DNA from: Anolis carolinensis
Lineage: Eukaryota
Assembly: GCF_035594765.1 (NCBI RefSeq)
Contig: NC_085842.1
Coordinates: 19,506,782-19,570,781, forward strand
DNA: 64,000 nucleotides
Direction: 5' to 3'
This document shows positions 5,246 to 63,970 of this stretch, piece by piece (the stretch's first letter is position 1; each line of letters starts with the position of its first letter). Position numbers and translations under genes: made by a program. The notes beneath the pieces are model-generated. The model was not told the DNA's origin. It saw only the letters and a list, made by a program, of their open reading frames with translations, and searched no databases.

Positions 5246-6079
5246 TAGAGGTGCATTAGAGATTCCTATGTTTTTCTACTTTCTTGGGGCCCTTAAGCTC
5301 CTAATCCTGGCGAATATAAAGAGCTAACTATAAAAGTGAAAATAAATATGTGTGTATGGTTAACCGTTTTCTGAATAATCCCATTAGAAAATGGATTTGT
5401 GGCCAACTCTGGTTACATAAGCTAGTGTTTTATAACACTAGGCTTCTATGCACAGTTTAATTCTGCTTTATTTTCTCCATGCATAAGAAATGTAGTGCTC
5501 TGAATATAGGATTCTGTTAAGAATTGAAATATTACCCAAGTTTTGTCATCTTGAGGAGTCCTTTCTCTATCTCACTTGTCTTCCTGCCCCTCTGAGGCCC
5601 CTCTCACTCCAGGTTTTATCTTTGTGTTCACGTGGCCTGCCCTTGTTTTACTGTTTTTTGATTTCTTGATGTAATGCCTATTATCATTTATTGTATTTTT
5701 AATGGTGCTATGTTATGTTGTTTTATATTTTGTTATATTGTATTGCTCTGGGCATGGCCCCATGTTAGCCGCCCCGAGTCCCCGTTGGGGAGATGGTGGC
5801 GGGGTATAAATAAAGTTTTATTATTTATTATTATTATCTACCCTGACATATAATCCAGTATCTGATCCCAGATTATGTGCTTTGAACTGGATTATATGAG
5901 TCTACACTGCCATATAATCCAGTTCAAAGGAGATAAGCTGGGATCAGAAACTAGATTATATGACAGTGTAGATGGGGCCTGAGATGGACTCCCTTAAAAT
6001 ATTGCTATTTTCTCTAAGAACCTCTCAAATCCGATCAGGAGGGCTTTAAACTGAATTACCTGGTGGAGGGAGTCAGCAT

Positions 6080-14470: not shown

Positions 14471-15123
14471 TGATTTATGGTTCATCATATCTTTAAACAT
14501 GAGTCCATGTGTTTATGTGTTCTAGATAGTACTTGGTTTTGAAAAAGAGCCCGTGTGGTATCTTTTTGGTTGTTTGCTTGTCAAACAATGGCTAACGACA
14601 AAAATGAACTTCATGAAAGGTTCATCTTGACGTGACAATAGGATGGAAACGACTTAAAACCATACAAGCAAAGTTGTTTAGTGTTAAGTGGTTTTAGCAA
14701 AAAGAATGCAACTCCAGAATGATTCATGAGGTAGCAGTGTGGATGGCACTGAGGTCAATACGAAGTCCTATAGGGTGAAACAGAGGTGGGAGGTCAGTGG
14801 AAGGCCAAGAGAAAGAAGGTGAAGCTGGGGAAATGAGAGAGATAAGTGGAAATGATGGGCCAGTCTGCTTTGATTCTCAAGTAACTTCATAGGTCTCAGG
14901 TGAAAATGATTTCCTGATCATCATGTACCTTTCCTTCAAGGAAGAGAGACAGTTGTCAGTTGTAACAGTCCCTATTTGTTCTTCCCTACAGAGTGCAACA
15001 ATTGTTAATGCAATCTCTTGGCTTTACAGAAAAATTAGGCACAAAGACTGATGAGGGATCCTTGGCCCTGAGAGGGGAGGAGCAGCTATAACTAAGAGGT
15101 TCGCATTGGACATCGGTTGAAAG

Positions 15124-15537
15124 ATGGACAGACCGGACTCAGCTGGGCCTGAAGCAGGAAACGTCCTTGAGGGCTTAAGTGCTGGGAACAAAGGAAGATT
15201 CTGGGCAAGACCAATGCTCAAATTCCTGGGTGATAACTTTGCCAACTCAGACACACAGCCTCATCATTTTGGGCAGTTCTCCTGTGAGGAGGTGGAGTGG
15301 CCCCGGGAGATCTGCAGCCAACTCCACCATCTCTGCCGCCAGTGGCTGAAGCCAGAAAAACACACAAAAAACCAGATGCTGGACCTGGTGGTGCTGGAGC
15401 AGTTCCTGACCCTCCTGCCACCAAAGATGTCAAGCTGGGTCAGGGAATGTGGAGCAGAGACATGTTCCCAGGCCGTGGCCCTGGCAGAAGGATTCCTCCT
15501 GAGTAAGGAAGCAGAGGAGCAGGATGAAGAGCAGCAG
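15124..15537 (+). CDS. ZNF gene A (SCAN-KRAB-C2H2, ZKSCAN-like), SCAN exon
   Basis: [40 protein letters not shown]...WVRE SCAN motif; donor CAG|GTGAGT. Model join(15124-15537,16150-16252,16562-16620,17939-18065,19068-20188) = 607 aa with consistent phases. Confidence 0.92.
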
Positions 15538-16149
15538 GTGAGTGCATTTCATCTGCAAAGTTCAGGACATCTTCCCCTGTTCACTTGTTCTTCAATCTCT
15601 TCTGTTCATACTGTTGCTACTCCAAGCGCCACTGGGATATTTGTTGCATCTCTGTCGTAATACTCTTAATTTGCAGTGGATTCACAATCTCAGAAGCTTC
15701 AAGTAAGATGTGTCCTCCTTATTTGTTTTGTTTGTTATTGGCTGTTAGGAACTGTGGGGTTTGAAGTCCAAAACACCTGGAGGGCCAAAATTTGCCCATG
15801 CCTGCTACACTGTCAATAATAATAACAACAACAACAACAACTTTATTATTGTACCCTCCCTCCATCTCCCCGAAGGGACTCGGGGCGGCTTACATAAGAA
15901 AAACAGTCCATAGATTTAAAACACAATATAATAACATAGTTATAAAACAACATAACTTGACAATTATTAAAACCAAGACATTAATTGCTATGTACAGAGG
16001 GTGATTAATGCAAAACTCTGAGTAAAGTCCATGAGTAAAATAGAGACGGGCGGGGGAAGACAAGGAACTGATACACTTAATACACACACCCCGCCATTTG
16101 GAAGTAAATCACTTTCTAATCCTGTCTTGAATCCTGACAATTGTTTCAG

Positions 16150-16252
16150 GCGAAGAAGCTCTCTACTGACATTCAGCCTGATTTCTCTGCTGTAAGAGAG
16201 GCTCCATCAGATGCCAGGCAGAACTCCCAGCAAAGGGACATCACTTTGCAAG
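16150..16252 (+). CDS. ZNF gene A linker exon (103 nt)
   Basis: TTTCAG| ... |GTAAGG, open frame, conserved in genes B and C. Confidence 0.85.
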
Positions 16253-16561
16253 GTAAGGATACTCCCTGATAAAGTGGGTTTTTATGTAGAATTATGTTTA
16301 ACTCCCTCATCTTTACTATTATGAAAAAAATAATGTTGTGACACATGCCAGTATGACTGGGCCAAGTTTCCTGGTTAGTGGGGATTAAAATGTGATATTC
16401 AAAATTTCCACATAGCCACCTTAATTGTTATCACATTGCTGTATGTCCTTTAGAACTAACTTTTCTTCCATTCAAGGGGTTTTGCTCTTAGAAGGGTTTG
16501 GGGGATTGCAGTCTTAGTCTCTGAGGCCAACGTACATTCTTGCTGCATTGATCTCTCACAG

Positions 16562-16620
16562 GGGCTGAAGCAATACAGGGAACAATGGCTCTTGGTTACA
16601 ATGGAGTGGGACTATTTCAG
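16562..16620 (+). CDS. ZNF gene A linker exon (59 nt)
   Basis: CACAG| ... CAG|GTAAGG; restores phase 0; conserved in gene C. Confidence 0.8.
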
Positions 16621-16709
16621 GTAAGGAGAAAGATAACTGGAAACATGAGTTAGAGATCCTCTATCTCCAATTTTTAATCCTCAGTAATGAAAGGAATAAT
16701 AAAAGCTGT

Positions 16710-17165
16710 GCCGGGCTGTGGCGCAGGCTGTTGAGCAGCTGCAATAAATCACTCTGACCATGAGGTCATGAGTTTGAGGCCAACCCGTGGCGGGGTGAGC
16801 ACCCGTCAATTAAAAATAAAAAATAGCCACTGCTCGTTGCTGACTTGGCAACCCGAAAGATAGTTGCATCTATCAAGTAGGAAATAAGGTACCACTTATA
16901 AAAGTGGGGAGGCAAGTTTAACTAATTTACGACCTGGAATGAGGAAGTGCTGTCAGAGTGGATGATGAAGCAGCTGCTCCCCCCTGTGGCCAGAATCAAA
17001 CATCCCCTCAGAAGAAGGTTAATTTGCCTCTGCGTCTGTCTGTCTCGGTCTCTGTTTGATGTGTTTATGGGCATTGAATGTTTGCCCTATGTGTGTATAA
17101 TGTGATCTGCCCTGAGTCCCCTTCGGGGTGAGAAGGGCGGAATATAAATACTGTAAATAAATAAT
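16710..17165 (+). mobile_element. tRNA-derived SINE with L2-type tail
   Basis: GCCGGGCTGTGGCGCAGG head, (TAAA) tail, flanking ATAAAAGCTG repeat; absent from the paralogous intron of gene C. Confidence 0.75.
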
Positions 17166-17938
17166 ATAAAAGCTGGGAGTTTCCTAAATATTTTTGGTGT
17201 AAAGATGTAGAGATTTAAACAATTTACTCCTGTAGTTTGCAAGCAGTACCCAGACTGAGAGGCAAAGAATCAAGGAGATTCCAAAGCAAGTCATAGGCAA
17301 TTGGCACTTAGTTGATACAGGTCTGGTGTTGAATCTCGTACCTGGACAAGAGGAACCCCATCCTGTTGTTGCTTGTAGCAAAGCTGAAAGTGTAAGAAAG
17401 TACCTGCTGGGTCAGACCAAAGATCCACCTGGCTCACTATCCTGATTCCCAAAGTGTGCAAACAGACTAGGCCAGTGGTTCTCAACCTGTGGGTCCACAA
17501 ATGCTTTGGCCTTCAACTCCCTGAAATCCTAACAGCTGGTAAACTGGCTGGGATTTTTGGGAGTTGTGGGCCAAAACACCTGGGGACCCACAGGTTGAGA
17601 ACCACTTATCTAGGCAGTCCATATGCCAAGTCATGATGGCCATAGTAATTTTTGAGTGTTGTGATATTCAAAGCAATATCTCTTCTCCTCTTGGAAATGG
17701 TTAGCAGCAAATGGGCCTAACAGGCAAATAATTTGTCCGGCTAGGAAGGCTGTGAATGCTACTTGAAGTTTTAAGCCTGCAATATAAGACCCAGTTGCCC
17801 CACATTAACTTAGATTTGTGTTTTGTTTGACCCCATCTACACTGCCATATAATGTAGCTTCATAATGCAGTTTATTAATGTTGTCTATTGCTTTGATGCT
17901 GGATTTGAGCAGGAAATGTTATTTCTTTTTTAATTGAG

Positions 17939-18065
17939 GTTCCAGTGACTTTTGAAGAAGTGGCTGTGTCTTTCCTCCCAGAGGAATGGAGTTTCCTAAA
18001 TGCAGATCAGAGAGCCCTGTACAACGAAGTCATGGAGGAAACCTGTAGCATCATGTCTGCTCTTG
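17939..18065 (+). CDS. ZNF gene A KRAB-A exon
   Basis: 127-nt exon, [43 protein letters not shown]. Confidence 0.9.
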
Positions 18066-18439
18066 GTATGGCCTTTTCTTTCTTTTGCTTGTAATCTCTA
18101 TTTTAAAATGCCAGAACAAATACTCAGAAAAAGAGCAGCAACCAAGCACTGGACGTTTTCTTAAGGCACGGCTGGAACTTCTCTCCTTCCAGGCCAGGCC
18201 CTTCCTTGCAGCTGTTTCCAGTGTTGATTGTTTGCCCTTCAGCTTGGCCAGTAATGATGCATGATGTCCACCTGTCTTTTTTGGTTTCTGGGCTGCCATT
18301 CTTTTCTCATCTTTGATCCTCTCTGAGCTTCAGGGATTTGAACAGTTTCCAGTTTTGGAGATACCACACAGTTTGGAATATAACTACCCTGAGCCTATGT
18401 TCAAGCTCATGTTTCCATTCCACCTGCAGAATGGAACTA

Positions 18440-18762
18440 CAGTAGAGTCTCACTTATCCAAGCTAAACGGGCCAGCAGAAGCTTGGATAAGCAAATATCT
18501 TGGATAATAAGGAGGGATTAAGGAAAAGCCTATTAAACATCAAATTAGGTTATGATTTTACAAATTAAGCACCAAAACATCATGTTATACAACAAATTTG
18601 ACAGAAAAAGAAGTTCAATACGCAGTAATGTTATGTTGTAATTACTGTATTTACGAATTTAGCACCAAAAAATCACAATATAATGCAAACATTGACTACA
18701 AAAATGGCTTGGATAATCCAGAAGCTTGGATAAGCGAGGCTTGGATAAGTGAGGCTCTACTG
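18440..18762. mobile_element. Tc1/mariner-pogo MITE
   Basis: TIRs, TA duplication; empty site in gene C at ~50055. Confidence 0.88.
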
Positions 18763-19067
18763 TATCTCAAAGCTTATTTTAAGCTCCAGACCTAATAGAA
18801 GCAAACAAAGCTCAAAAAACCTCAGAGCTTCTGACATAAAAATAACCCAGTTCTGGACTCCATCCCTCAATCCACCTTCCAACCATCATGGCCACTCTTA
18901 ATGAAAATAGAAAACATTTTAGCTGGACCTTTTAGCAATGCGGACATCTTGCTTCCCCTTAGGATCCTTTCCTGTTAAGATCTCATTTACCCATGTCTTT
19001 GATCTCTGACATTTCTTTTTACTGAAACTTGGGAATGTATTTTCATATACTGATTTTCTTTTATCAG

Positions 19068-20188
19068 GTAACTGGAAGGGAAAAAATGCCTTTGCCAACC
19101 ACAGGAATCCTCATACTCAAATCTTTCCCAAACACGAAGAAGCCTGCATAGAAGAAAAATGTCCTGAAGAGATGGCCTGCATATGCACCAACTGTGGAAG
19201 ATGTTTTACCCCAAACACAATACATGTGTGTGATGAGAGAATGCAGCAGGAAGAGAACCACTTTGGATATGAAGTTTTGGTGAAAGGTGTTGATTGCAAA
19301 TTGCAGCATGAGAGATACCATATAGCAGAGAAAGCACACAAATGCCAGGAGTGTGGGAAATGTTTTGCTTCCAAGTCGCATCTTCGGCAACACCAGGCAA
19401 TCCACACAGGAGACAAACCATACAGCTGCCAAGAATGTGGGAAATGTTTTATTTCTACATCAGGACTCCTCAGACACCTGAGAACTCACACGGGAGAGAA
19501 ACCCTACAGATGCCAAATGTGTGGAAAATGTTTTGTTTCTAATTCAGTACTTCTGATCCACCAGAGAATCCACACAGGGGAAAAGCCATACAAATGCCAG
19601 GAATGTGGGAAATGTTATGCCCATCATTCAGGGCTTGTTGTCCACCAAGGAATGCACACAGGAGAGAAACCGCACAACTGCCAAGAATGTGGGAAGTGTT
19701 TTCATTCCCGATCAGGACTTCTCAAACACCAGAGAATCCACACAGGAGAGAAGCCATACAAATGCCAAGAGTGTGAGAAATGTTTTCTTTCCAAGTCATC
19801 TTTTGTGGATCACAAACGGGTTCACACAGGAGAGAAACCATTCAAATGCCAGGAGTGTGGGAAATGTTATGCCCGAAATTCAGTGCTTATTATCCACCTG
19901 AGAACCCACACAGGAGAAAAACCATACGGGTGCCAGGAGTGTGGGAAGTGTTTTAATTCCAAGCCAGAACTTTTGAATCACCAGAGAATCCACACCGGAG
20001 AGAAACCATATAAGTGCCAGGAGTGTGGGAAATGTTATGCCCGGAAACCAGATCTTGTCATTCACCAGAGAACCCACACAGGAGAGAAACCATACTCATG
20101 CGAGGAATGTGGAAAACGCTTTTCTTCCAAGTCATGTCTTGTCATCCATCAGAAAATCCATCAGAAATATAGTACATATAGTACATAA
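19068..20188 (+). CDS. ZNF gene A C2H2 zinc-finger exon (10 fingers in frame)
   Basis: Tandem CxxC...HxxxH with TGEKP linkers; acceptor TTATCAG|; 11th finger shifted out of frame by an insertion at 20161-20194. Confidence 0.93.
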
Positions 20189-34290: not shown

Positions 34291-36035
34291 TCAAAATAAG
34301 ACATTGTCCATACTCATGTCATGTGTATGGTTTATCTCCTCTGTGGATTCTCGGGTGGATTCCAAGTCCTGGCTTGGAAGGAAAACATCTTCCACACTCA
34401 TGGCGTTTCTGTGGTACTCCTCTTGTGTGGACTCTCCAGCGGCGGAGGTTAAGCTGCGGATTTTCAGTATAATGTTTTCCACGCTATTCGTATCCGGTTG
34501 CTTTCCCCTGTGGATTCTCTGGTGTTTGATGAGCCCTGACATGGAACCAAAACACTTAACACACTCCTGGCACTGGTATGGCTTCTCTCCGGTGTGGATC
34601 CTCTGGTGGACCACAAGGTCAGACCTGCGAATCCAGCCTTTCCCACACACCTGGCATTCATATGGTTTCTCCCCTGTGTGGGTTCTGTGGTGGATCACAA
34701 GTCCCGCCTTGGAAGTGAAACATTTTCCGCACTCTTGGCATATATACAGTTTATCTCTTGTGTGGACTTTCCGGTGGACGTGAAGGTGTGAAGTTTGGGT
34801 ATAACATTTGCCACATTCCTCACATTTGTATGGCTTCTCTCCTGTGTGGATTCTCTGGTGGATGACAAGGTCTGATTTGGAAGCAAAACATTTTGCGCAT
34901 ACCTGGCATTTATATGGCTTCTCTCCTGTGTGTACTCTATGGTGTTTCACAAGTTCTGATTTTGAAGCAAAGCATTTTTGACACACCTGGCATTCATACG
35001 GTTTCTCCCCTGTGTGGGTTCTCTGGTGGATCTCCAGGTATGATTTAGAAACAAAACATTTTTCACAATCTTGACATTTATATGGTTTCTCCCCTGTGTG
35101 AATTCTCTGGTGGATCACGAGTCCCGATGTGGAAGCAAAACATTTCCCACATTCCTGACACTTGTATAATTCCTCACTTGTGTGGACTCTCCGGTGGATG
35201 TGAAGGTGAGAAGACTGGGGATAACATTTTCCACAGTCCTGACATTTGTATGGTTTCTCCCCTGTGTGGATTCTCTGGTGGATCACAAGTTTTGACTTCG
35301 AAACAAAACATTTTACACAATATGGGCATTTGTACGGTTTCTCTCCTGTGTGGATTCTCTGGTGGATCACAAGGTCTGACTTGGATGCAAAACACTTCTC
35401 ACACTCTTGGCATTGGAACGGTTTCTCTCCGGTGTGGATCCTCTGGTGTTTCAGAAGTCCTGATTTGGAAGCAAAACACTTCACACACTCTTCACATTTG
35501 TAGGGTTTCTCCCCTGTGTGGATTCTCTGGTGGACAGACAGTTTTGACTTGGAAACAAAAGATTTTCCACACTCCTGGCATTTGTATGGTTTCTCCCCTG
35601 TTTGGATTCCTTGCGGGATCACAAAGTTTGACCCACAAGTACAATTTTCCCCACACACTGGGCACATGTATGGTATTCCTTCTGGGTCAATTCTTTGGTG
35701 GAAGAGAAAGTTTGGATCTGCAATAGAAAATGTTCCACCCTCCTGGTAATTGAATGATGCCTCTGCGGTATGGACTCCCTCGTGGCTATTGGGGAGAAAT
35801 TTGAGATCAACATCTTTCACCAAAAGTTCTCCATCACGGTTCTCTTCCAGCTGCATTCTCTCGTCACACACATGTATCATGTTTGGTGCAAAACATCTCC
35901 CACAGCTGGTGCATATGCAGGACATGTCTTCAGGGCATTTTTCTTCTGTGTGGACTGGTTCATCTTTGGGGAACACTGCATTCTGAGTAGGAGAATTCCC
36001 ATGGTTGGCAAAGGCATTATTCTCCTCCCAGTCAC
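34291..36035 (-). CDS. ZNF gene B C2H2 zinc-finger exon (13 intact fingers plus degenerate ones)
   Basis: Long open C2H2 array with TGEKPY linkers; acceptor TCTAGCAG|GT; model join(38065-38032,36035-34291) = 592 aa. Confidence 0.92.
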
Positions 36036-36317
36036 CTGCTAGAAAGAAGAATAAGGGTAAATGCTCATTCCCAAGTATGAGCAAAAATGAATGCCAGGAA
36101 ACAAGAAAGGATCCAGAAGACCTTTAAAAAGCCCAACCTCAGGAAAACCAGCCTCTCCTCATTGTTTCTTTCAGGATCCAGGCACATGGCTTTACATTCT
36201 TCATATTTAAAACAAAACAAGCTCCCAATATTCAGTTTAGTTTCACATACAATAGGGGTTTAATTTGAGACCCCTTCATCACCAATATCTGACAGATGAC
36301 AGAAAGATTTCTGAATA

Positions 36318-48473: not shown

Positions 48474-49741
48474 CTATGGTTCCTTTCCTTTATGCATTCT
48501 CTTGTGTTTCACAAGTCCTGACTTGGAAACATAGCATTTTTCACAATCCTCACATTTGTATTCTTCCTCTCCTTTGTGGATTTTCTGATGAATGACAAGA
48601 CATGACTTGGAAGAAAAGCGTTTTCCACATTCCTCGCATGAGTATGGTTTCTCTCCTGTGTGGGTTCTCTGGTGGATGACAAGATCTGGTTTCCGGGCAT
48701 AGCATTTCCCACACTCCTGGCACTTATATGGTTTTTCTCCTGTGTGGATTCTCTGGTGATTCCATAGTTCTGGCTTGGAATTAAAACATTTCCCACACTC
48801 CTGGCACCCGTACGGTTTTTCTCCTGTGTGGGTTCTCTGGTGGATGATAAGCACTGAATTTCGGGCATAACATTTCCCACACTCCTGGCATCTGAATGGT
48901 TTCTCTCCTGTGTGGACCCTTTTGTGGATCACAAATGATGACTTGGAAACAAAACATTTCTCACACTCCTGGCATTTGTATGGCTTCTCTCCTGTGTGGA
49001 TTCTCTGGTGTTTAAGTAGTCCTGACCTGGAATTAAAACACTTCCCACATTCTTGACAGTTGTACAGTTTCTTTCCTGTGTGGATTCCTTGGTGGACAAC
49101 AAGCACTGAATGTTGGGCATAACATTTCCCACATTCCTGGCATTTGTATGGCTTTTCCCCTGTGTGGATTCTCTGGTGGATCAGAAGTACTGAATTGGAA
49201 ACAAAACATTTCCCACACTTTTGGCATCTGTAAGGTTTCTCTCCCGTGTGGGTTCTCTGGTGTCTGAGGAGTCCAGATGTAGAATTAAAACACTTCCCAC
49301 ATTCTTGGCAGCTGTATGGTTTCTCTCCTGTGTGGATCACCTGGTGTTGCCGAAGATGTGACTTGGAAGCAAAGCATTTTCCACACTCCTGGCATCTGTA
49401 TGGTTTCTCTCCTGTGTGAATTATCTGGTGGATCACAAGGCGTGATTTGAAAGTAAAACATTTTCCACACTCCTGGCATTTGTGTGCTTTCTCTGCTATA
49501 TGGTATTCCTCGTGCTGCAATTTGAGATCAACACCTTTCATCGAAAGTTCATATCCAAAGTGGTTCTCTTCCTGCTGCATTCTCTCATCACACACATGCG
49601 TAATGTTTGGGGCAAAATATCTTCCACAGCTGGTGCATATGCAGGACATCTCTTCAGGACATTTTTCTTCCATGCAGGCTTCTTCGTGTTTGGGAATGTT
49701 TTGACAATGGTTGGCAAAGGCATTTTTTCCCTTCCAGTTAC
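48474..49741 (-). CDS. ZNF gene C C2H2 zinc-finger exon (12 fingers)
   Basis: Open C2H2 array; acceptor TTTTAGCAG|GT. Model join(52775-52362,51753-51651,51311-51253,50562-50436,49741-48474) = 656 aa. Confidence 0.93.
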
Positions 49742-50435
49742 CTGCTAAAAGAAAATCAGTATATGAAAATACATTCCCAAGTTTCAGCAAAAAGAAATAT
49801 CAGGGATCAAAGACATAGGTAAATAAGAACTTAATAGGAAAGGATCCTCAGAAGAAGCAACACATCTGCATTGGTCCTTCCTGGGTCCAGCTGAAATGTT
49901 TTCTATTTTTCATTAAGAGTGGCCATGCTAGTTGGAAGGTGGATCTTGAGGCATGTAGTCCAGAATAATATTATTTTAATCTCACAATCTCTGAGTTTTT
50001 TTTGAGTTTCATTTACTTACATTAGGTCTGGAGCTCTTAAAATAAGCTTTGATTAGTTCCATTCTACAGGTGGAATGGAAACATGAGCCTGAACATATGC
50101 TCAGGGTAGTTATATTCCAAACTGTGGTATCTCCAAACTGGAAGCTGCTCAAGTCCCTGAAGCTCAGAGAGGATCAAAGATGAGAAGAGTGGCAACCAGA
50201 AACCCATAAAGACAGGTGGAGATGTACAACTGCTCTGATCATGCAGCACCAATGTCCAAACTGAAGGCATACAATCGACACTGGAAACAGCTGCAAGGAA
50301 GGGCCTGGCCTGGAAGGAGAGCAGTCCCAGTCCTGCCTTAAGAAAACTCCCAGTGCTTGGTTGCTGTCCTTGTTCTGAGTAGTCTGGCATTTTAAAATAG
50401 ATATGATTACAAGCAAAAGAAAGAAAAGGCCATAC

Positions 50436-50562
50436 CAAGAGGACACATGATGCTACAGGTTTCCTCCATGACCTCGTTGTACAGGGCTCTCTGATCCGCA
50501 TTTAGGAAGACCCACTCTTCTGGGAGGAAAGATACGGCCACCTCTTCAAAGGTCACTGGAAC
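50436..50562 (-). CDS. ZNF gene C KRAB-A exon
   Basis: 127 nt, [43 protein letters not shown]. Confidence 0.9.
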
Positions 50563-51252
50563 CTCAATTAAAAAAGAGAAAACATTTCCTGCTCAAACCC
50601 TGCATCAAAGCAATAGACAGTATATGCATTATATGGCAATGGGGATAGGGCCAAACATAACACAAATCTGAGTTAATGCGGGGCAATTGGGTCTTATATT
50701 GCAGGCTTAAAACTTCAAGTGGCATTCACAGACTTCTTAGCATAACAACTTATTTGCCTGTTCATCCATGTGCTGCTAGCCATTATCCAGGAGTAGAGAT
50801 ATTGCTTTGAATATCAAAACACTCAAAAATTACTATGGCCATCATGACTTGGCATACAGGACTACCTAGATGCATCTGTTTGCACAATTTGGGAATCAGG
50901 ACAGTGGGACAGGTGGACCTTTTGTCTGACCCAGCAGGTACTTTCTTACACTTCCAGCTTTGCTACAAGCAACAAGGGGATGGGGTTCCTCTTGTCCAGG
51001 TAGGAGACTCAACACCAGACCTGCATCAACTGAGTGCCAATTGCCTACATTTTGCTTTGGAATCTCCCCAATTCTTTGTCTTTCAGTCTGGGTACTACTT
51101 GCAAACCATAGGAGCAAATTGTTTAAATCTCTACAACTTTACACCCAAAGTATTTAGGAAGCTCCCAGGTTTTGTTATTATTTTCATTACTGAGGACTAA
51201 AATTGGAGATAGAGGATCTCTAACAAATGTTTCCGGTGAACCTTTTCCTTAC

Positions 51253-51311
51253 CTGAAATATTCCTCCTCCATTGTAACCAAGAGCCATTGTTCCCTGTGT
51301 TACTTCAGCCC
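51253..51311 (-). CDS. ZNF gene C linker exon (59 nt)
   Basis: Paralog of 16562-16620, AG/GT intact. Confidence 0.8.
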
Positions 51312-51650
51312 CTGTGTGAGAGATCAAAGCAGTGGGAAGTAAGTTGCCCATGTTGGCCTCAGAGACAAAAGAACACAATCCCTCAAACCCTTATCAGAGC
51401 AAAACCCCTCGAACATAAGAAAAATTAGTTCTAATGGACATAAGTAGCAACGTGATAATGGTTAAGGTGATTATCTGGAAATTTTGAACACCACATTCTA
51501 ATCCCCACTAACCAGGAAACTTAGTCAAGTCATACTGGCATGTATCACAATATTTTTTTTCGTAATAGTAAAGGCTCAGTATATGGAACAAAATGAGGGA
51601 TTTAAATGTAATTCTGCATAAAAACTTGCTTTATTGGGGAGTATCCGTAC

Positions 51651-51753
51651 CTTGCAAAGTGATGTCCCTTTGCTGGGAGCTCTGCCTGGCACCTGATGGA
51701 GCCTCCCTTACAGCAGAGAAATCAGGTTGAATGTCCACAGGGAGCTTCTTCAC
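51651..51753 (-). CDS. ZNF gene C linker exon (103 nt)
   Basis: Paralog of 16150-16252, open frame, AG/GT intact. Confidence 0.85.
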
Positions 51754-52361
51754 CTGAAACAATTGTCAGGATTCAAGACAGGATTAGAAAGTGATGTACT
51801 TCCAAATGGCGGGATGTGTGTATGAAATTGACAGTGTAGCAGGCAGGGGCAAACTTTGATCCTCCAGGAGTTTTGGACTTCAACTCTCACAATTCCTAAC
51901 AGCCAGTAGTCTGTTAAGAATTGTGGGAGTTGAAGTCCAAAACACCCAGAGGGCCAAAGTTTGTCCATGCCTTGAGTAGAGTGAATCCATCCATCATTTC
52001 ACCCTCGCTCACCTCTAGAAAAAAAGGGTATCATGCTTTAGAGGGGGAAGGGCAGACTTGGATGTGTCAAGGAACTACAACCACACTAGCAAATCCACCT
52101 CTGCTTCCATGGCAACCAAAAGATGTGGCATTCCCTTTAGAAACAAAACAAATAAGGAGTACGCATCTTACTTGAAGATTCTGAGATTGTGAATCCACTT
52201 CAAATTAAGAGGAGCCTTGTTTTCTTAAGATTATACATTACAACAGAGATGCAACAAATATCCCAGTGGCTCTTGAGAGTGGCAGTAGTAGGAACAGAAG
52301 AGATTGAAGAACAAGTGAACAGGGGAAGATGTCCTGAACCTTGCAGATGAAATGCACTTAC

Positions 52362-52775
52362 CTGCTCTTTTTCATCCTGCTCCTCTGCTTCCTTACTCAG
52401 GAGGAATCCTTCTGCCAGGGCCATGGCCTGGGAACATGTCTCTGCTCCACACTCCCTGACCCAGCTTGACATCTTTGGTGGGAGGAGGGTCAGGAACTGC
52501 TCCAGCACCACCAGGTCCAGCATCTGTTTTTTTGTGTGTTTTTCTGGCTTCAGCCACTGGCGACAGAGATGGTGGAGTTGGCTGCAGATCTCCCGGGGCC
52601 ACTCCACCTCCTCACAGGAGAACTGACTAAAATGCTGAGGCTGTATGTCTGAGTTGCCAAGGTTATCACCCAGGAATTTGAGCATCGTTCTTGCCCAGAA
52701 TCTTCTATTACTTTCAACACATGAGCCCTGAACGACTTGTCCTGCTTCAGATCCAGCTGAGTCCGATCTGTCCAT
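52362..52775 (-). CDS. ZNF gene C (SCAN-KRAB-C2H2, ZKSCAN-like), SCAN exon
   Basis: SCAN motif [26 protein letters not shown]; donor CAG|GTAAGT. Confidence 0.92.
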
Positions 52776-53729
52776 CTTTCAATCGATGTCCAATGGAGGT
52801 ACCAATGCAAACCTCCTGGTTATGGCTCCTCCTTCCCTCTCAGGGTCAAGAATCCCTCATCAGTCATTGTGCCAAAACTCTGTAAAGCCAAGAGATTGCA
52901 TTAACAATTGTTGCACTCTGTAAGCAAGAACAAATAGGGACTTTTACAACTGAGAACAGTCTCTCTTCCTTGAAGGAAAGGTCCTTGGTGATCAGGAAAT
53001 CATTTTCACCTGAGACCCATGAAGGAAGGCCTTGAGTTATTTGAGAATCAAAGCATTGTGGCCCATCATTCCCACTCATCTCTCTAATTTCCCCCAGCCT
53101 CGCCTTCCTTCTCTTGGCCTTCCACTGACCTCCCATCTCTGTCTCACCCTTCGTATTGACCTCAGCCCCATCCACACTGCTGCCTCATGAATAATTCTGG
53201 AGTTTCATTCTTTTTGCTAAAACTACTTAACACTTAAAAAAACACCTTTGCTTGTATGGTTTTAAGTTGTTTCCACCCTATTGTGACCTCAAGATGAATC
53301 TTTCATGAAGTTCATTTTTGTCACTAGCCATTGTTTGACATGTAAACAACAAAAATGATACCACACGGGGTCTTTTTCAAATCACAAACACATGGACTCA
53401 CATTTTAAAATAGGCTTTCTGAAATACAATTTAACAGTCATTCTAACTTTAAAATGACATTACTCCATCCAAAAAGACTGCTGTTGGTTGTTGTGAGCTG
53501 TAAAGTCATTTCTGACCTTTGGTAATCCTAAATTTATGCTTCCACAGGGTTTTCTTAGCAAGATTTTTGCAGTGGGGTAGACTGCCTTCCAATGAGAGAA
53601 TGTGATGGCCCAGCACACCCAGTAGGTTTCAAGTGAAAGCGGATTTGAACCCAGATGTTCAAGCCTTTATATCAAATTGGTTCTTTTTGTGGCATGACCT
53701 GCCAGAATAGATCCAACAGCTATAGATAG

Positions 53730-59308: not shown

Positions 59309-59626
59309 GTGTTGTTGAAGGCTTTCATGGCCAGGATCACAGGGTTGTTGTATGTCTTTCGGGCTGTGTGGCCATGTTCCAGAAGTATTCTCTCCTGACG
59401 TTTCGCCCACATCTATGGCAGGCATCCTCAGAGGTTGTGAGGTATGGAAAAACTAAGCAAGGTATGTTTATATTCCTGGACTTCCCACAGATATATATAA
59501 ACATTCCTTGCTTAGTTTTTCCATACCTCACAACCTCTGAGGATGCCTGCCATAGATGTGGGCGAAACATCAGGAGAGAATACTTCTGGAACATGGCCAC
59601 ACAGCCCGAAAGACATACAACAACCC
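59309..59626. mobile_element. Penelope-like palindromic fragment
   Basis: ~130-bp near-identical inverted arms. Confidence 0.85.
59394..59434 (-). ncRNA. minimal type I hammerhead ribozyme (Penelope-associated)
   Basis: Intact core on the minus strand within the palindrome arm. Confidence 0.65.
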
Positions 59627-60270: not shown

Positions 60271-61067
60271 AAAAAAAAAAAAAGCTATGTAGTCATAACT
60301 TTAAATTAATCCGCTATAGTCCCATGTGAGTTGAAACTGTAGTGAAAAGTCTTTGGAAGTACGTGATGATCAGGAATGTGATCCGGAAAACAACAAGGGT
60401 TCCTGGGTGCTTTTATCCTTGTTTCAGGAAAAGTATCCCTTCTTCAGGTTGCTTGCTTCATGTATTTGAACTAGTGTCTTCAGAAGATTTTATAGGCTAT
60501 ATTTAAAGAGACAACATAATAGATATGTTATACTAGCGCCCAGTAGCAATAAACAATTGATAATCTTTTAACAACAATTAAAAAAAGAGAAAACACTTCC
60601 TCTGGAAAGGCCTACAACAAGGACAGAAAACTGGTAGCTGTTGATCCTCAGGTGTGTTAGCAGTGTCGGTCAAAATATGTAGCAAGTGGTTCTTATTTTC
60701 CCACCCAAATGAAGACATGTTTGTGTATGTACAAACTCGTGATGAAAATGAGCATGCACATACACAAGCAAAACTCCTGGCTGGGAAGAGAGAGATGAGT
60801 TATGCCCATAACTGTACAGCTCTCTTTTTGAAGCCAACCAGAGAAGGAAAGCTTACCACTGAACCTCTATTACTGTCAAGAAGTTCTGTTTAATGTTCAA
60901 TTTAAAACCATTAGATTTGGTCCTGCTACCCTCTGAGACAGCAGAGAATGAGCTCCTCTGTAGCAATCCTTGAGGTGTTTAAAAAGAGCAGCCATGTCAC
61001 TCTGCAATGTTCTCTTCACCAGCTGAACAGACCCAGCTCCCATAATCTGTCTTTGTATGTTTAATTG

Positions 61068-62828
61068 TCAGGCTCCTGCTAGTTCCGGAGTTATAATGTT
61101 CCTAGAACAACCACAATCCACGAATGCCTTGCAGGTGGCCCGATTCTCTAGCCCCGAGATGCAGATTGGCACTACTATCATGCGTTTGTCCCGACTCACC
61201 AGTTTTTCCGAAGATTCTGGGGCTTGCACCTCCTCCTCCGCACGCCTTCCGGTTGCTGGCTTGGGTTTTGAGGGTTTTGGCGGCTCCCCCTTCCGTGCCC
61301 AACATTCTGCTGCTCGATGGCCCGTTTTCCCACACACAAAGCATCCCGGTTTAGGTTTGTTGTCGTCTCCTCTGGGGGGAATCCCCGGCCTCCCTCCGTA
61401 CCTTTCCTGCTTCCTCGTTTCTCCTCGGCCTCTCGCCACCGGTCTCTGCTGGCCGCTGCTGCCCCTGAAGCGCTTCACTTGGGCCAGGGTGGACTCAACG
61501 CGCCCCGCTAGTTGAATCCATCCCTGGAGCGTTTCGGGGTCATCTCTGTGCGCTGCCCAGCTGAAAACTTCGGGGCGTAGTCCCTCTTTAAATATTTCCA
61601 CTTTGGTCACTTCAGACCACTCTGGTACCCTTTCCGCGAGGTGGAGGAATTCCTCTGCGTACTCGGGCACCGTTTTGTCCCTCTGCTTTATTCCTTTAAA
61701 CTGGTCTCGAGCCCTCAATTGCTCTAGCCGGTCTCTGAACCGGTTTTCCAGGGCGGCGAGGAAGCGGGGCACCGACCTCAGGCATGGGTCGCGTCTGGCA
61801 TGTAGTTGCACATACCAGCTTGCAGCTCCTCTCTTTAGTGTGTTGCCGATGGCTCGAACCCTGCTTGCTTCGGAGGGGAATGTGTGTGCATTGTCTTCCA
61901 TGTATCCTCTGATGCTAATTAGAAAAAAGTTCAGTTCAGCTGATTCCCCTCCGTATTCTAGTTTGAGATCTTCCCTTCTTGGCATCCATTCTGCGGCCCG
62001 TTGATGCTGTCTGGGAGGCATGGGGAAGGGTTGCATCGGGTTTCCTCGGACGGCCCCTTGGAACACGCCGCGCCCCACTCCGGTGGTCATTCTGCGCGGC
62101 TCCCGAAATCCTGCCGCCGCTGTCGGCCCTTCCACCCATCCGCATACGGGCCTCGCTGTAGCCCCCGCATCTCGCCTTTCCTCGTCGTACGGCACATCCT
62201 CCTCCTCCTCCTGGATCTCCTGCTCCTCTCCGCCTTCGTCTGCAAATCCACTGGACCCGATCCCTGGCCCCAGTGGTCTTTCCACCCCGACGCCCATTCG
62301 GGGGGTTGGGAGCTCTGTTGGAGATGGCGGCCTCAGAGTTCCCAGAGCTCGCTGGCGCTCCACTTCGCGTGCCATTCTGTCTCGGAACTCCAGCTCCTGC
62401 CAGTATTCCTCATCTCCCTCGTCCCTCGCTGCCACGGGACTCTGCGTTGATGCTCGCTGGCCCCTCTGGCTCCAATCTCCTTCTTTACTTGGCTCTCTCT
62501 CGGCGCCATATCGGATGGGCTCCTTTTGGAGATTCTCTTCCAATAGTGGCACCAACCTCCCCACGGTTTCCGACAGCCTGGATAAATTAGTTTCCAGGAT
62601 GGATAACCGCAGGGCCACGGTCTCCGGCATGCTTCCTCCAGATCCCCAACTGGTTTCTGCAGCCGCAGAGACGCCTCTTCCTCCCCTGGGAATCCTCTGG
62701 GTCACGCCGTTCGGCCTGGGGTACCCCGTAGAGGAAGCTATGGCTTGCAGCGTCTCTCCTCCCTTCGGCCGGGCCCCTTGCAAAGGCCTCCCTGCTCCAT
62801 TTGGGCTTTGATCTCCTTCTTCACTCAT
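61068..62828 (-). CDS. gag: retrotransposon Gag (capsid + CCHC nucleocapsid) fused to a truncated aspartic protease, 586 aa
   Basis: ATG at 62828 (MSEEGDQ); PEG10/RTL-like capsid (YGGESAELNFF...GAASW...QRDKTVPEYAEEF...FKEGL); CFVCGKTGHRAAEC knuckle; AFVDCGCSRNII protease motif. Confidence 0.88.
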   Translation of the reverse strand: MSEEGDQSPNGAGRPLQGARPKGGETLQAIASSTGYPRPNGVTQRIPRGGRGVSAAAETSWGSGGSMPETVALRLSILETNLSRLSETVGRLVPLLEENLQKEPIRYGAEREPSKEGDWSQRGQRASTQSPVAARDEGDEEYWQELEFRDRMAREVERQRALGTLRPPSPTELPTPRMGVGVERPLGPGIGSSGFADEGGEEQEIQEEEEDVPYDEERRDAGATARPVCGWVEGPTAAAGFREPRRMTTGVGRGVFQGAVRGNPMQPFPMPPRQHQRAAEWMPRREDLKLEYGGESAELNFFLISIRGYMEDNAHTFPSEASRVRAIGNTLKRGAASWYVQLHARRDPCLRSVPRFLAALENRFRDRLEQLRARDQFKGIKQRDKTVPEYAEEFLHLAERVPEWSEVTKVEIFKEGLRPEVFSWAAHRDDPETLQGWIQLAGRVESTLAQVKRFRGSSGQQRPVARGRGETRKQERYGGRPGIPPRGDDNKPKPGCFVCGKTGHRAAECWARKGEPPKPSKPKPATGRRAEEEVQAPESSEKLVSRDKRMIVVPICISGLENRATCKAFVDCGCSRNIITPELAGA

Positions 62829-62882
62829 TATCACTTCACTGCGAATTCCGCAGGAGGGTGAGAACAGGATTCTCGACTTAAA

Positions 62883-63244
62883 TGTCAGGCTCACTTCAAA
62901 GGACCAGTCTGAACGCAGATCAAAGATAGCTGCTCTCAAATCCAATCTTTATTGAAGAATACATGACTTTGGAAAAGTCGAGAATGACCTAATGTTTACA
63001 TACACTCAATTTTATCACTTCTGATTCAACGTAATACCACACGCAAATATCATCATCAAATCCCACCCCCTGGATCACATTACTACCATTCCCACACACT
63101 ATATCAATTATAATTGTTTATACTTTCGAGCCTGAGTTCCCAGGCTCATTTTATCTTCTCCCGCCAGGTGCTTGCAGGATTATTTATGTTATGAAGTCAG
63201 ATTCAGGGCTTGGAAATTCAGCCCTGGGATCTGGCTCCATGACA
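62883..63244 (-). repeat. 5' LTR (362 bp)
   Basis: TGTCA...TGACA termini; GATAAAA at 63016-63010, Inr-like TCATTCT with A at 62985, AATAAA at 62953-62948. Confidence 0.85.
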
Positions 63245-63544
63245 TTTAATGATAATAATTTTATTATTATGACCATAGACCAAGAGTGTAAAACATTAAA
63301 AACATTTTTTTTAAAAAAATGTTAACATTAAGACCAGAAATTTATAACATAAAATCAAAAAGTTCATACGCTTATAAAATCTGTGGGTATGAATAATAAA
63401 ATGATTATGTCTAAACTTTATCCACTGAAATCGTCCACAAACTCCACTAAATTTAGCTACTCTATAAGTAATTGATGGATCCCTATTATCTATAAGATGT
63501 TTTAGATAATATTCTTCATTCTTGCCAGAGATCTTTTGTACATT

Positions 63545-63970
63545 GTGGGGGACAAGAGACAGGGCTTTTTCGGTGGTGGCTGCATGGCTGTTGAACTCCT
63601 TGGCAAGGGAGATTAGGGAAGCCCCCTCACTGATGTCTTTTAGGAAGCAGCTGAAGACCTGGATGTGGGACCAAGCTTTTGGCCCATTCTAGGATATGAG
63701 TTGATATGACCTGATGGATTCTGTGGATTCATATGAAGTTGAATATGGACTGGCTCTGACTTTGGCTCAGTTCTACTGCCCCTGTTGTAATAGTCACAAG
63801 GGTTTTATTGTTTTAATTTGATCTGGATACCGGCTTTTAATTGTGTTTTATGTTTAGTTTTACTACATTTGTATTATATGTGGCATCTAATTCTGCCATT
63901 GTGTAAGACCACTCTGGGTCCCCCTGGGGGGAGAAGAGCAGTATATAAAATAAATAAATAAATAAATAAT
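63545..63970 (+). mobile_element. L2 LINE 3' end
   Basis: RDRAFSVVA..L.NSL.REIR...FRKQLKTW and (TAAA)n tail. Confidence 0.8.

Follow-up and report, generated by a model that had tools for sequence, protein, structure and literature searches.

A polymorphic copy with an internal deletion from a very young, self-priming Ty3/Gypsy family in Anolis carolinensis, and a predicted spliced gag RNA in its full-length relatives

The stretch of DNA analysed here (the window) comprises 64,000 nucleotides of the lizard Anolis carolinensis (contig NC_085842.1, positions 19,506,782 to 19,570,781), and carries on its minus strand a 2,179-bp element (63244-61066) with a single LTR and a 586-codon open reading frame (ORF). 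Very probably, this element is an ordinary dead end: a young, polymorphic and internally deleted copy from a very young Ty3/Gypsy family, with a frame that is open by youth. A preliminary description of the locus had seen in it a candidate nascent capsid gene or restriction factor, and had held a merely young and neutral copy to be equally possible. Of these readings, the neutral copy is the best one, with a polymorphic insertion, a young family and open frames that are common among its members, whereas the domestication of the deleted copy is not supported: an empty site exists, the private changes of the copy are not unlike neutral ones, and Gag-only frames occur in 6 of 50 sampled siblings. 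The locus itself matters little: by estimate, the family holds a few dozen Gag-only frames (6/50 scaled to 285 copies gives about 34), and this is one of them. A better lead is the prediction, at the level of the family, of a spliced gag RNA.

The anatomy previously proposed, with an LTR, an ORF without stops (62828-61068) and TTTAAT at both flanks, is borne out by the sequence and by Pfam. The upstream copy of the target site duplication (TSD) is TTTAAT on the plus strand (63245-63250), and is followed by a 5′ LTR of 362 bp (62883-63244, minus strand) with TG...CA ends and an AATAAA at 62953, about 96% identical to the LTRs of a full-length copy. The promoter of this LTR had been called intact, a term that would apply to the integrity of its letters. 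The primer binding site (PBS, 62869-62879, minus strand) is of the self-priming type and not of the TGG tRNA type, and pairs with a predicted 11-nt self-primer inside the LTR (62975-62985, minus strand). In a fold test that starts from a putative RNA 5′ end, this pairing reached a z of -3.47, with 0 of 200 shuffles as good. A short leader separates the LTR from the ORF (61068-62828, minus strand), in which Pfam recognizes Ty3_capsid (residues 296-445), Retrotrans_gag (334-419) and zf-CCHC (495-509), so that both the capsid and the single CCHC knuckle are whole. The frame had been presented as Gag in its entirety, which holds up to codon 543; residues 544-586 are the continuation of the pol frame into the start of the protease, Gag and protease sharing one frame in this copy as in its siblings. 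Because it joins Gag codons 1-543 to 43 pol-frame residues, the ORF is not a native Gag. The exact 586-residue product is absent from the protein collection searched. A PDB search with the single protein sequence gave 0 matches, and a profile search gave 13 weak ones in the region of the zinc knuckle, Ty3 Gag among them and PEG10 not.

At its other end, the element closes with 10 nt (61075-61066) identical to the LTR terminus (62892-62883), and this junction supplies the TGA stop, both as first reported. Alignment to full-length copies, a check suggested at the outset, mapped the deletion: relative to a natural copy that is 97% identical (L036), 3,495 bp are absent between two GAGC words, and with them the greater part of pol, including reverse transcriptase and integrase, as well as the polypurine tract and the 3′ LTR except its end. 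At the joint, the siblings read GAGC-GCTGAA in 29 of 29 loci and the deleted copy reads GAGC-CTGACA, so that the sequence surely derived from the 3′ LTR amounts to 6 nt only (CTGACA, 61071-61066), which is the source of the stop. The idea of a microhomology deletion leaving an immobile unit is thus supported, with a correction: the shared word is the 4-nt GAGC (61072-61075, minus strand), and GAGCC is rejected by the same 29 siblings. The downstream TSD (61060-61065), a single copy of which makes up the empty site, reads ATTAAA on the coding strand, a chance word resembling a poly(A) signal 2 nt past the new stop, and could possibly act as such by accident.

The element inserted normally, with its 6-bp TSD, and the 3,495 bp were lost between the two GAGC words, probably either through a template switch of the reverse transcriptase or, shortly after insertion, through microhomology-mediated repair. 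A retroelement donor without its polypurine tract and 3′ LTR cannot be copied, and the deletion would therefore have arisen in the very replication round that produced this copy, or after its insertion. With both of these parts gone, together with most of pol, further copying should be impossible, and the element would be unable to replicate alone, as any broken copy. Any product would be a Gag of abnormal form, outnumbered by hundreds of normal sources. Similar events can be found in the family: among 20 copies chosen by similarity, 6 are deleted or truncated, and three of the deletions (L033, L042 and L050) show 5-6 nt shared at the joint. In the last of them (G000:C1:250944712-250954711), an independent deletion reaches into the 3′ LTR, up to its final 47-52 nt, through a 5-nt shared word, keeps the TSD and leaves an ORF of 646 codons. 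Other origins were considered and rejected. The junction matches the genome once, at this locus, which discards a mobile Gag-only subfamily carrying it; the joint lies about 125 nt beyond the splice donor, which discards a retrocopy of a spliced gag RNA; and an aberrant integration, suspected from an odd TSD length, falls with the observation that 6 bp is usual in the family (37 of 50 copies on contig 1). A literature search on the deletion mechanism returned nothing relevant, and the portion of PMC9341512 that was accessible does not mention Gag.

Contigs from four public runs, belonging to four studies, were aligned to positions 60300-63600. In two of them (X3 and X8), contigs run from within the flank as far as 61101, show 0 differences, and reach 36 letters beyond the flank boundary and 30 letters beyond the deletion joint. 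In a third run (X1), a contig joins 61059 to 63245, with 6 letters that fit both sides, which is the empty site. Since the junction occurs in X3 and X8 and the empty site in X1, the insertion is polymorphic and not fixed at the orthologous site; this comparison of presence and absence had been proposed together with the original idea, for which polymorphism was named as an adverse outcome. The insertion is present in two of the three informative runs (X2 was uninformative), one of them possibly the source of the assembly, and is thus not rare in this small sample. Small indels at 60580 and 60642 in the flank of X1 are absent in X3 and X8, and the one at 60642, located on the empty-site contig, suggests a distinct haplotype.

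The family is a very young, self-priming and active Ty3/Gypsy LTR retrotransposon, with TG...CA ends and TSDs. A similarity search of the genome gave 2,273 candidates, and among the 40 that were scored, the 39 relatives other than the deleted copy showed 97-98% identity. An exact LTR/PBS pattern matched the genome 285 times (control, 0). Full-length copies are about 5.67 kb long and encode a single ORF of 1,606 codons, which in L036 follows the order Gag, protease, reverse transcriptase, RNase H, integrase and a Tf2-1-like SH3. Of 20 copies fetched, 17 have two LTRs (L046, L049 and L050 lack a pair) and one more was dropped (L040); in 15 of the 16 parsed pairs, the LTRs differ by 0-1 base. In a sample of 50 copies, which are all the contig-1 matches of the LTR/PBS pattern and were not chosen by similarity, 23 keep an ORF of at least 1,590 codons and 8 have an internal cover below 97%. 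In its single gag-pol ORF (PR-RT-RH-IN), its Tf2-1-like SH3 and its 11-nt self-priming PBS, a type of PBS described as typical of the Tf1/sushi group in the available text of PMC6317226 and shared by all 3 copies examined from a sister family, the element works like Tf1/sushi, a putative assignment made from layout and PBS. It differs from this group in its 6-bp TSD, its predicted spliced gag RNA and the lack of a chromodomain: L036, the sole copy scanned, gave no Pfam match at E 0.1, and would not be a chromovirus in the strict sense, which carries this domain at the integrase C-terminus. The sister family (that of protein P0030; copies L105-L107) is also very young: in all 3 copies examined, the two LTRs are 100% identical, 82 scored matches fall at 98-99%, the 11-nt self-primer is also there and the TSDs look 5 bp long instead of 6.

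Is the open Gag frame of this copy special? A complete Gag frame, with capsid motifs and knuckle, occurs in 35 of the 50 contig-1 copies, and in 6 of them the frame (528-759 codons) stops before the reverse transcriptase, as judged by comparing the length of the ORF with residue 777, where the Pfam RT domain starts. The CpG richness of the ORF, pointed out from the beginning, is true but a family norm, because gag holds 103 CpG within its first 1,650 nt, the same as the median of the 50 copies (103). In a panel of 69 copies, only 9 of 2,173 sites are private to the deleted copy (2 non-coding, 4 nonsynonymous and 3 synonymous; the seven within the ORF are 62758, 62208, 62110, 61773, 61700, 61399 and 61248), and with so few changes the frame is expected to be open under neutrality, the probability of no stop after 7 substitutions being 0.76. 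The ratio of 4:3 is not lower than neutrality would give (p 0.35) in a test of near-zero power with 7 coding changes, and does not differ from that of 29 other copies (44:35, p 1.0); a useful new allele would look alike in such a test. One observation counts against youth: the nearest copy in the panel is separated by 48 differences, against a panel median of 9, and 48 neutral substitutions keep the frame open 15% of the time. The identity of this nearest copy changes along the length of the deleted one, which would be a mosaic, or have an unsampled parent, or be somewhat older. Altogether, the open Gag frame likely reflects youth and not selection, and where a family is active, a gag that stays open and rich in CpG does not point to domestication.

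SCAN and C2H2 zinc-finger genes are clustered throughout the region of the element (window 15121-20188, 34291-36123 and 48474-52778; L097:1103-9221; L098:7205-8968), and an unlikely alternative would be a mildly deleterious or regulatory insertion, whose LTR and orphan splice donor disturb these neighbours. The element does lie between two divergent SCAN exons, one at 52203-52778 on the minus strand and another at about 64322 on the plus strand, the latter 1.1 kb from the LTR, and it is the sole CpG-island-like stretch of the window at the threshold used. However, no Gag-SCAN fusion is predicted, given that at three candidate acceptors ahead of the SCAN exon on the minus strand the frame closes in 5-19 codons; three nearer candidate acceptors close it after 4-36 codons. 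In the same region, a 132-nt inverted repeat (59342-59626), with arms 98% complementary and 21 nt apart, has more copies in the window and in L098, and likely corresponds to the ends of another repeat family, perhaps Penelope-like.

Still less probable, in our opinion, is a nascent restriction allele, still segregating, in which a Gag with a foreign C-terminus co-assembles with the particles of the family and poisons them. In such a scenario, the loss of the acceptor and of the native tail, a stop supplied by the LTR end and a poly(A) signal supplied by the TSD would together produce a dominant-negative Gag. The LTR, the capsid and the CCHC knuckle are indeed whole, the native tail of Gag is replaced, the ATTAAA past the stop could serve as the signal, and there is a precedent in yeast: DRT2 is a widespread and transcribed element that restricts, as stated in PMC10951436, and the p22 of Ty1 is a restriction factor, according to PMC4599808. 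In these yeast cases a Gag-derived frame likewise persists in a broken element, and DRT2 offers a closer model than PEG10/RTL, with the difference that the anole ORF keeps the whole Gag N-terminus. Against this scenario stand the empty site of X1, the lack of a selection signal in 7 coding changes (with almost no power), the 6 of 50 siblings that are also Gag-only, and a family that is still expanding. Were it true, a Gag-based restriction allele would have been caught segregating in a vertebrate, against an expanding family.

The likeness to domesticated genes can be traced to the metaviral Gag capsid domains (PF03732 and PF19259) shared with PEG10/SIRH/RTL; one relative from Anolis sagrei has in fact been automatically named PEG10. 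In the part of PMC11011659 consulted, PEG10/RTL genes are described as ancient and orthologous, with purifying selection acting on most of them and a -1 frameshift in PEG10. In contrast, the deleted copy is polymorphic, is one of hundreds, retains its LTR and has no PEG10-type -1 frameshift between Gag and protease. Finally, that the junction is an assembly artefact, a doubt raised early and conceivable for a joint unique in the assembly within a high-copy repeat, is excluded by the contigs of two runs, each from a different study, which cross it with 0 differences, and by the intact TSD, which matches the empty site.

Together with the reading of the locus as an ordinary young copy, the comparison with its siblings led to a prediction for the whole family. 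Eighteen of 35 protein matches are NCBI models of 566-578 residues, alike over about 550 residues and then diverging, which join codon 543 to a separate tail. In one of them (P0001), this tail maps to L036 at about 5261-5365, where it begins shortly after the pol stop, crosses the polypurine tract and enters the LTR (U3). The models break at CTG|GTGAGT, a donor present in 49 of the 50 contig-1 copies, and a pyrimidine-rich acceptor ending in AG occurs in 45 of them, so that a conserved donor and acceptor yield a Gag-only frame with an early stop. The predicted intron, of about 3.2 kb, takes out all of pol, and exon 2 encodes an acidic native tail of 35 residues. The same layout appears in 3 of 3 copies of the diverged sister family, whose protein P0030 (cluster of 89) matches 44% of the query at 61% identity. 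From these gene models and motifs, the full-length copies of both families are predicted to make Gag from a spliced mRNA, and the family likely produces Gag without Pol as a matter of course. The deleted copy keeps the predicted donor (61194-61199, minus strand; exon end at 61200) after codon 543, whereas the acceptor, the 35 residues of the native tail and the poly(A) signal of the 3′ end are gone. A genome search with an exact pattern for a copy without the intron gave 0 matches, which is not a proof of absence.

Among Ty1/Copia elements, EVD (with its shGAG) and BARE1 combine a single gag-pol ORF with a spliced Gag-only RNA that stops soon after the joint, as reported in the excerpts of PMC5580714. 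The anole family, and not the deleted copy, would be alike in its single ORF and its predicted Gag-only RNA, whereas it belongs to Ty3/Gypsy, its intron removes all of pol, and its exon 2 runs via the polypurine tract into U3. In the literature searched, most subscription papers and Repbase aside, we found no description of spliced gag RNA in vertebrate Gypsy elements. If RNA confirms the splicing, a single-ORF vertebrate Gypsy element would solve the Gag-to-Pol ratio as Copia does, and many anole genes named “uncharacterized” or “PEG10” by NCBI would be transposon copies. Many of the “uncharacterized” genes (proteins P0001-P0018) already appear to be copies of the family. A further protein that clusters with the Gag models (P0051, 565 residues) is annotated by NCBI as “replication protein A 32 kDa subunit isoform X2”, either a mislabel or a chimeric model of Gag and a host gene.
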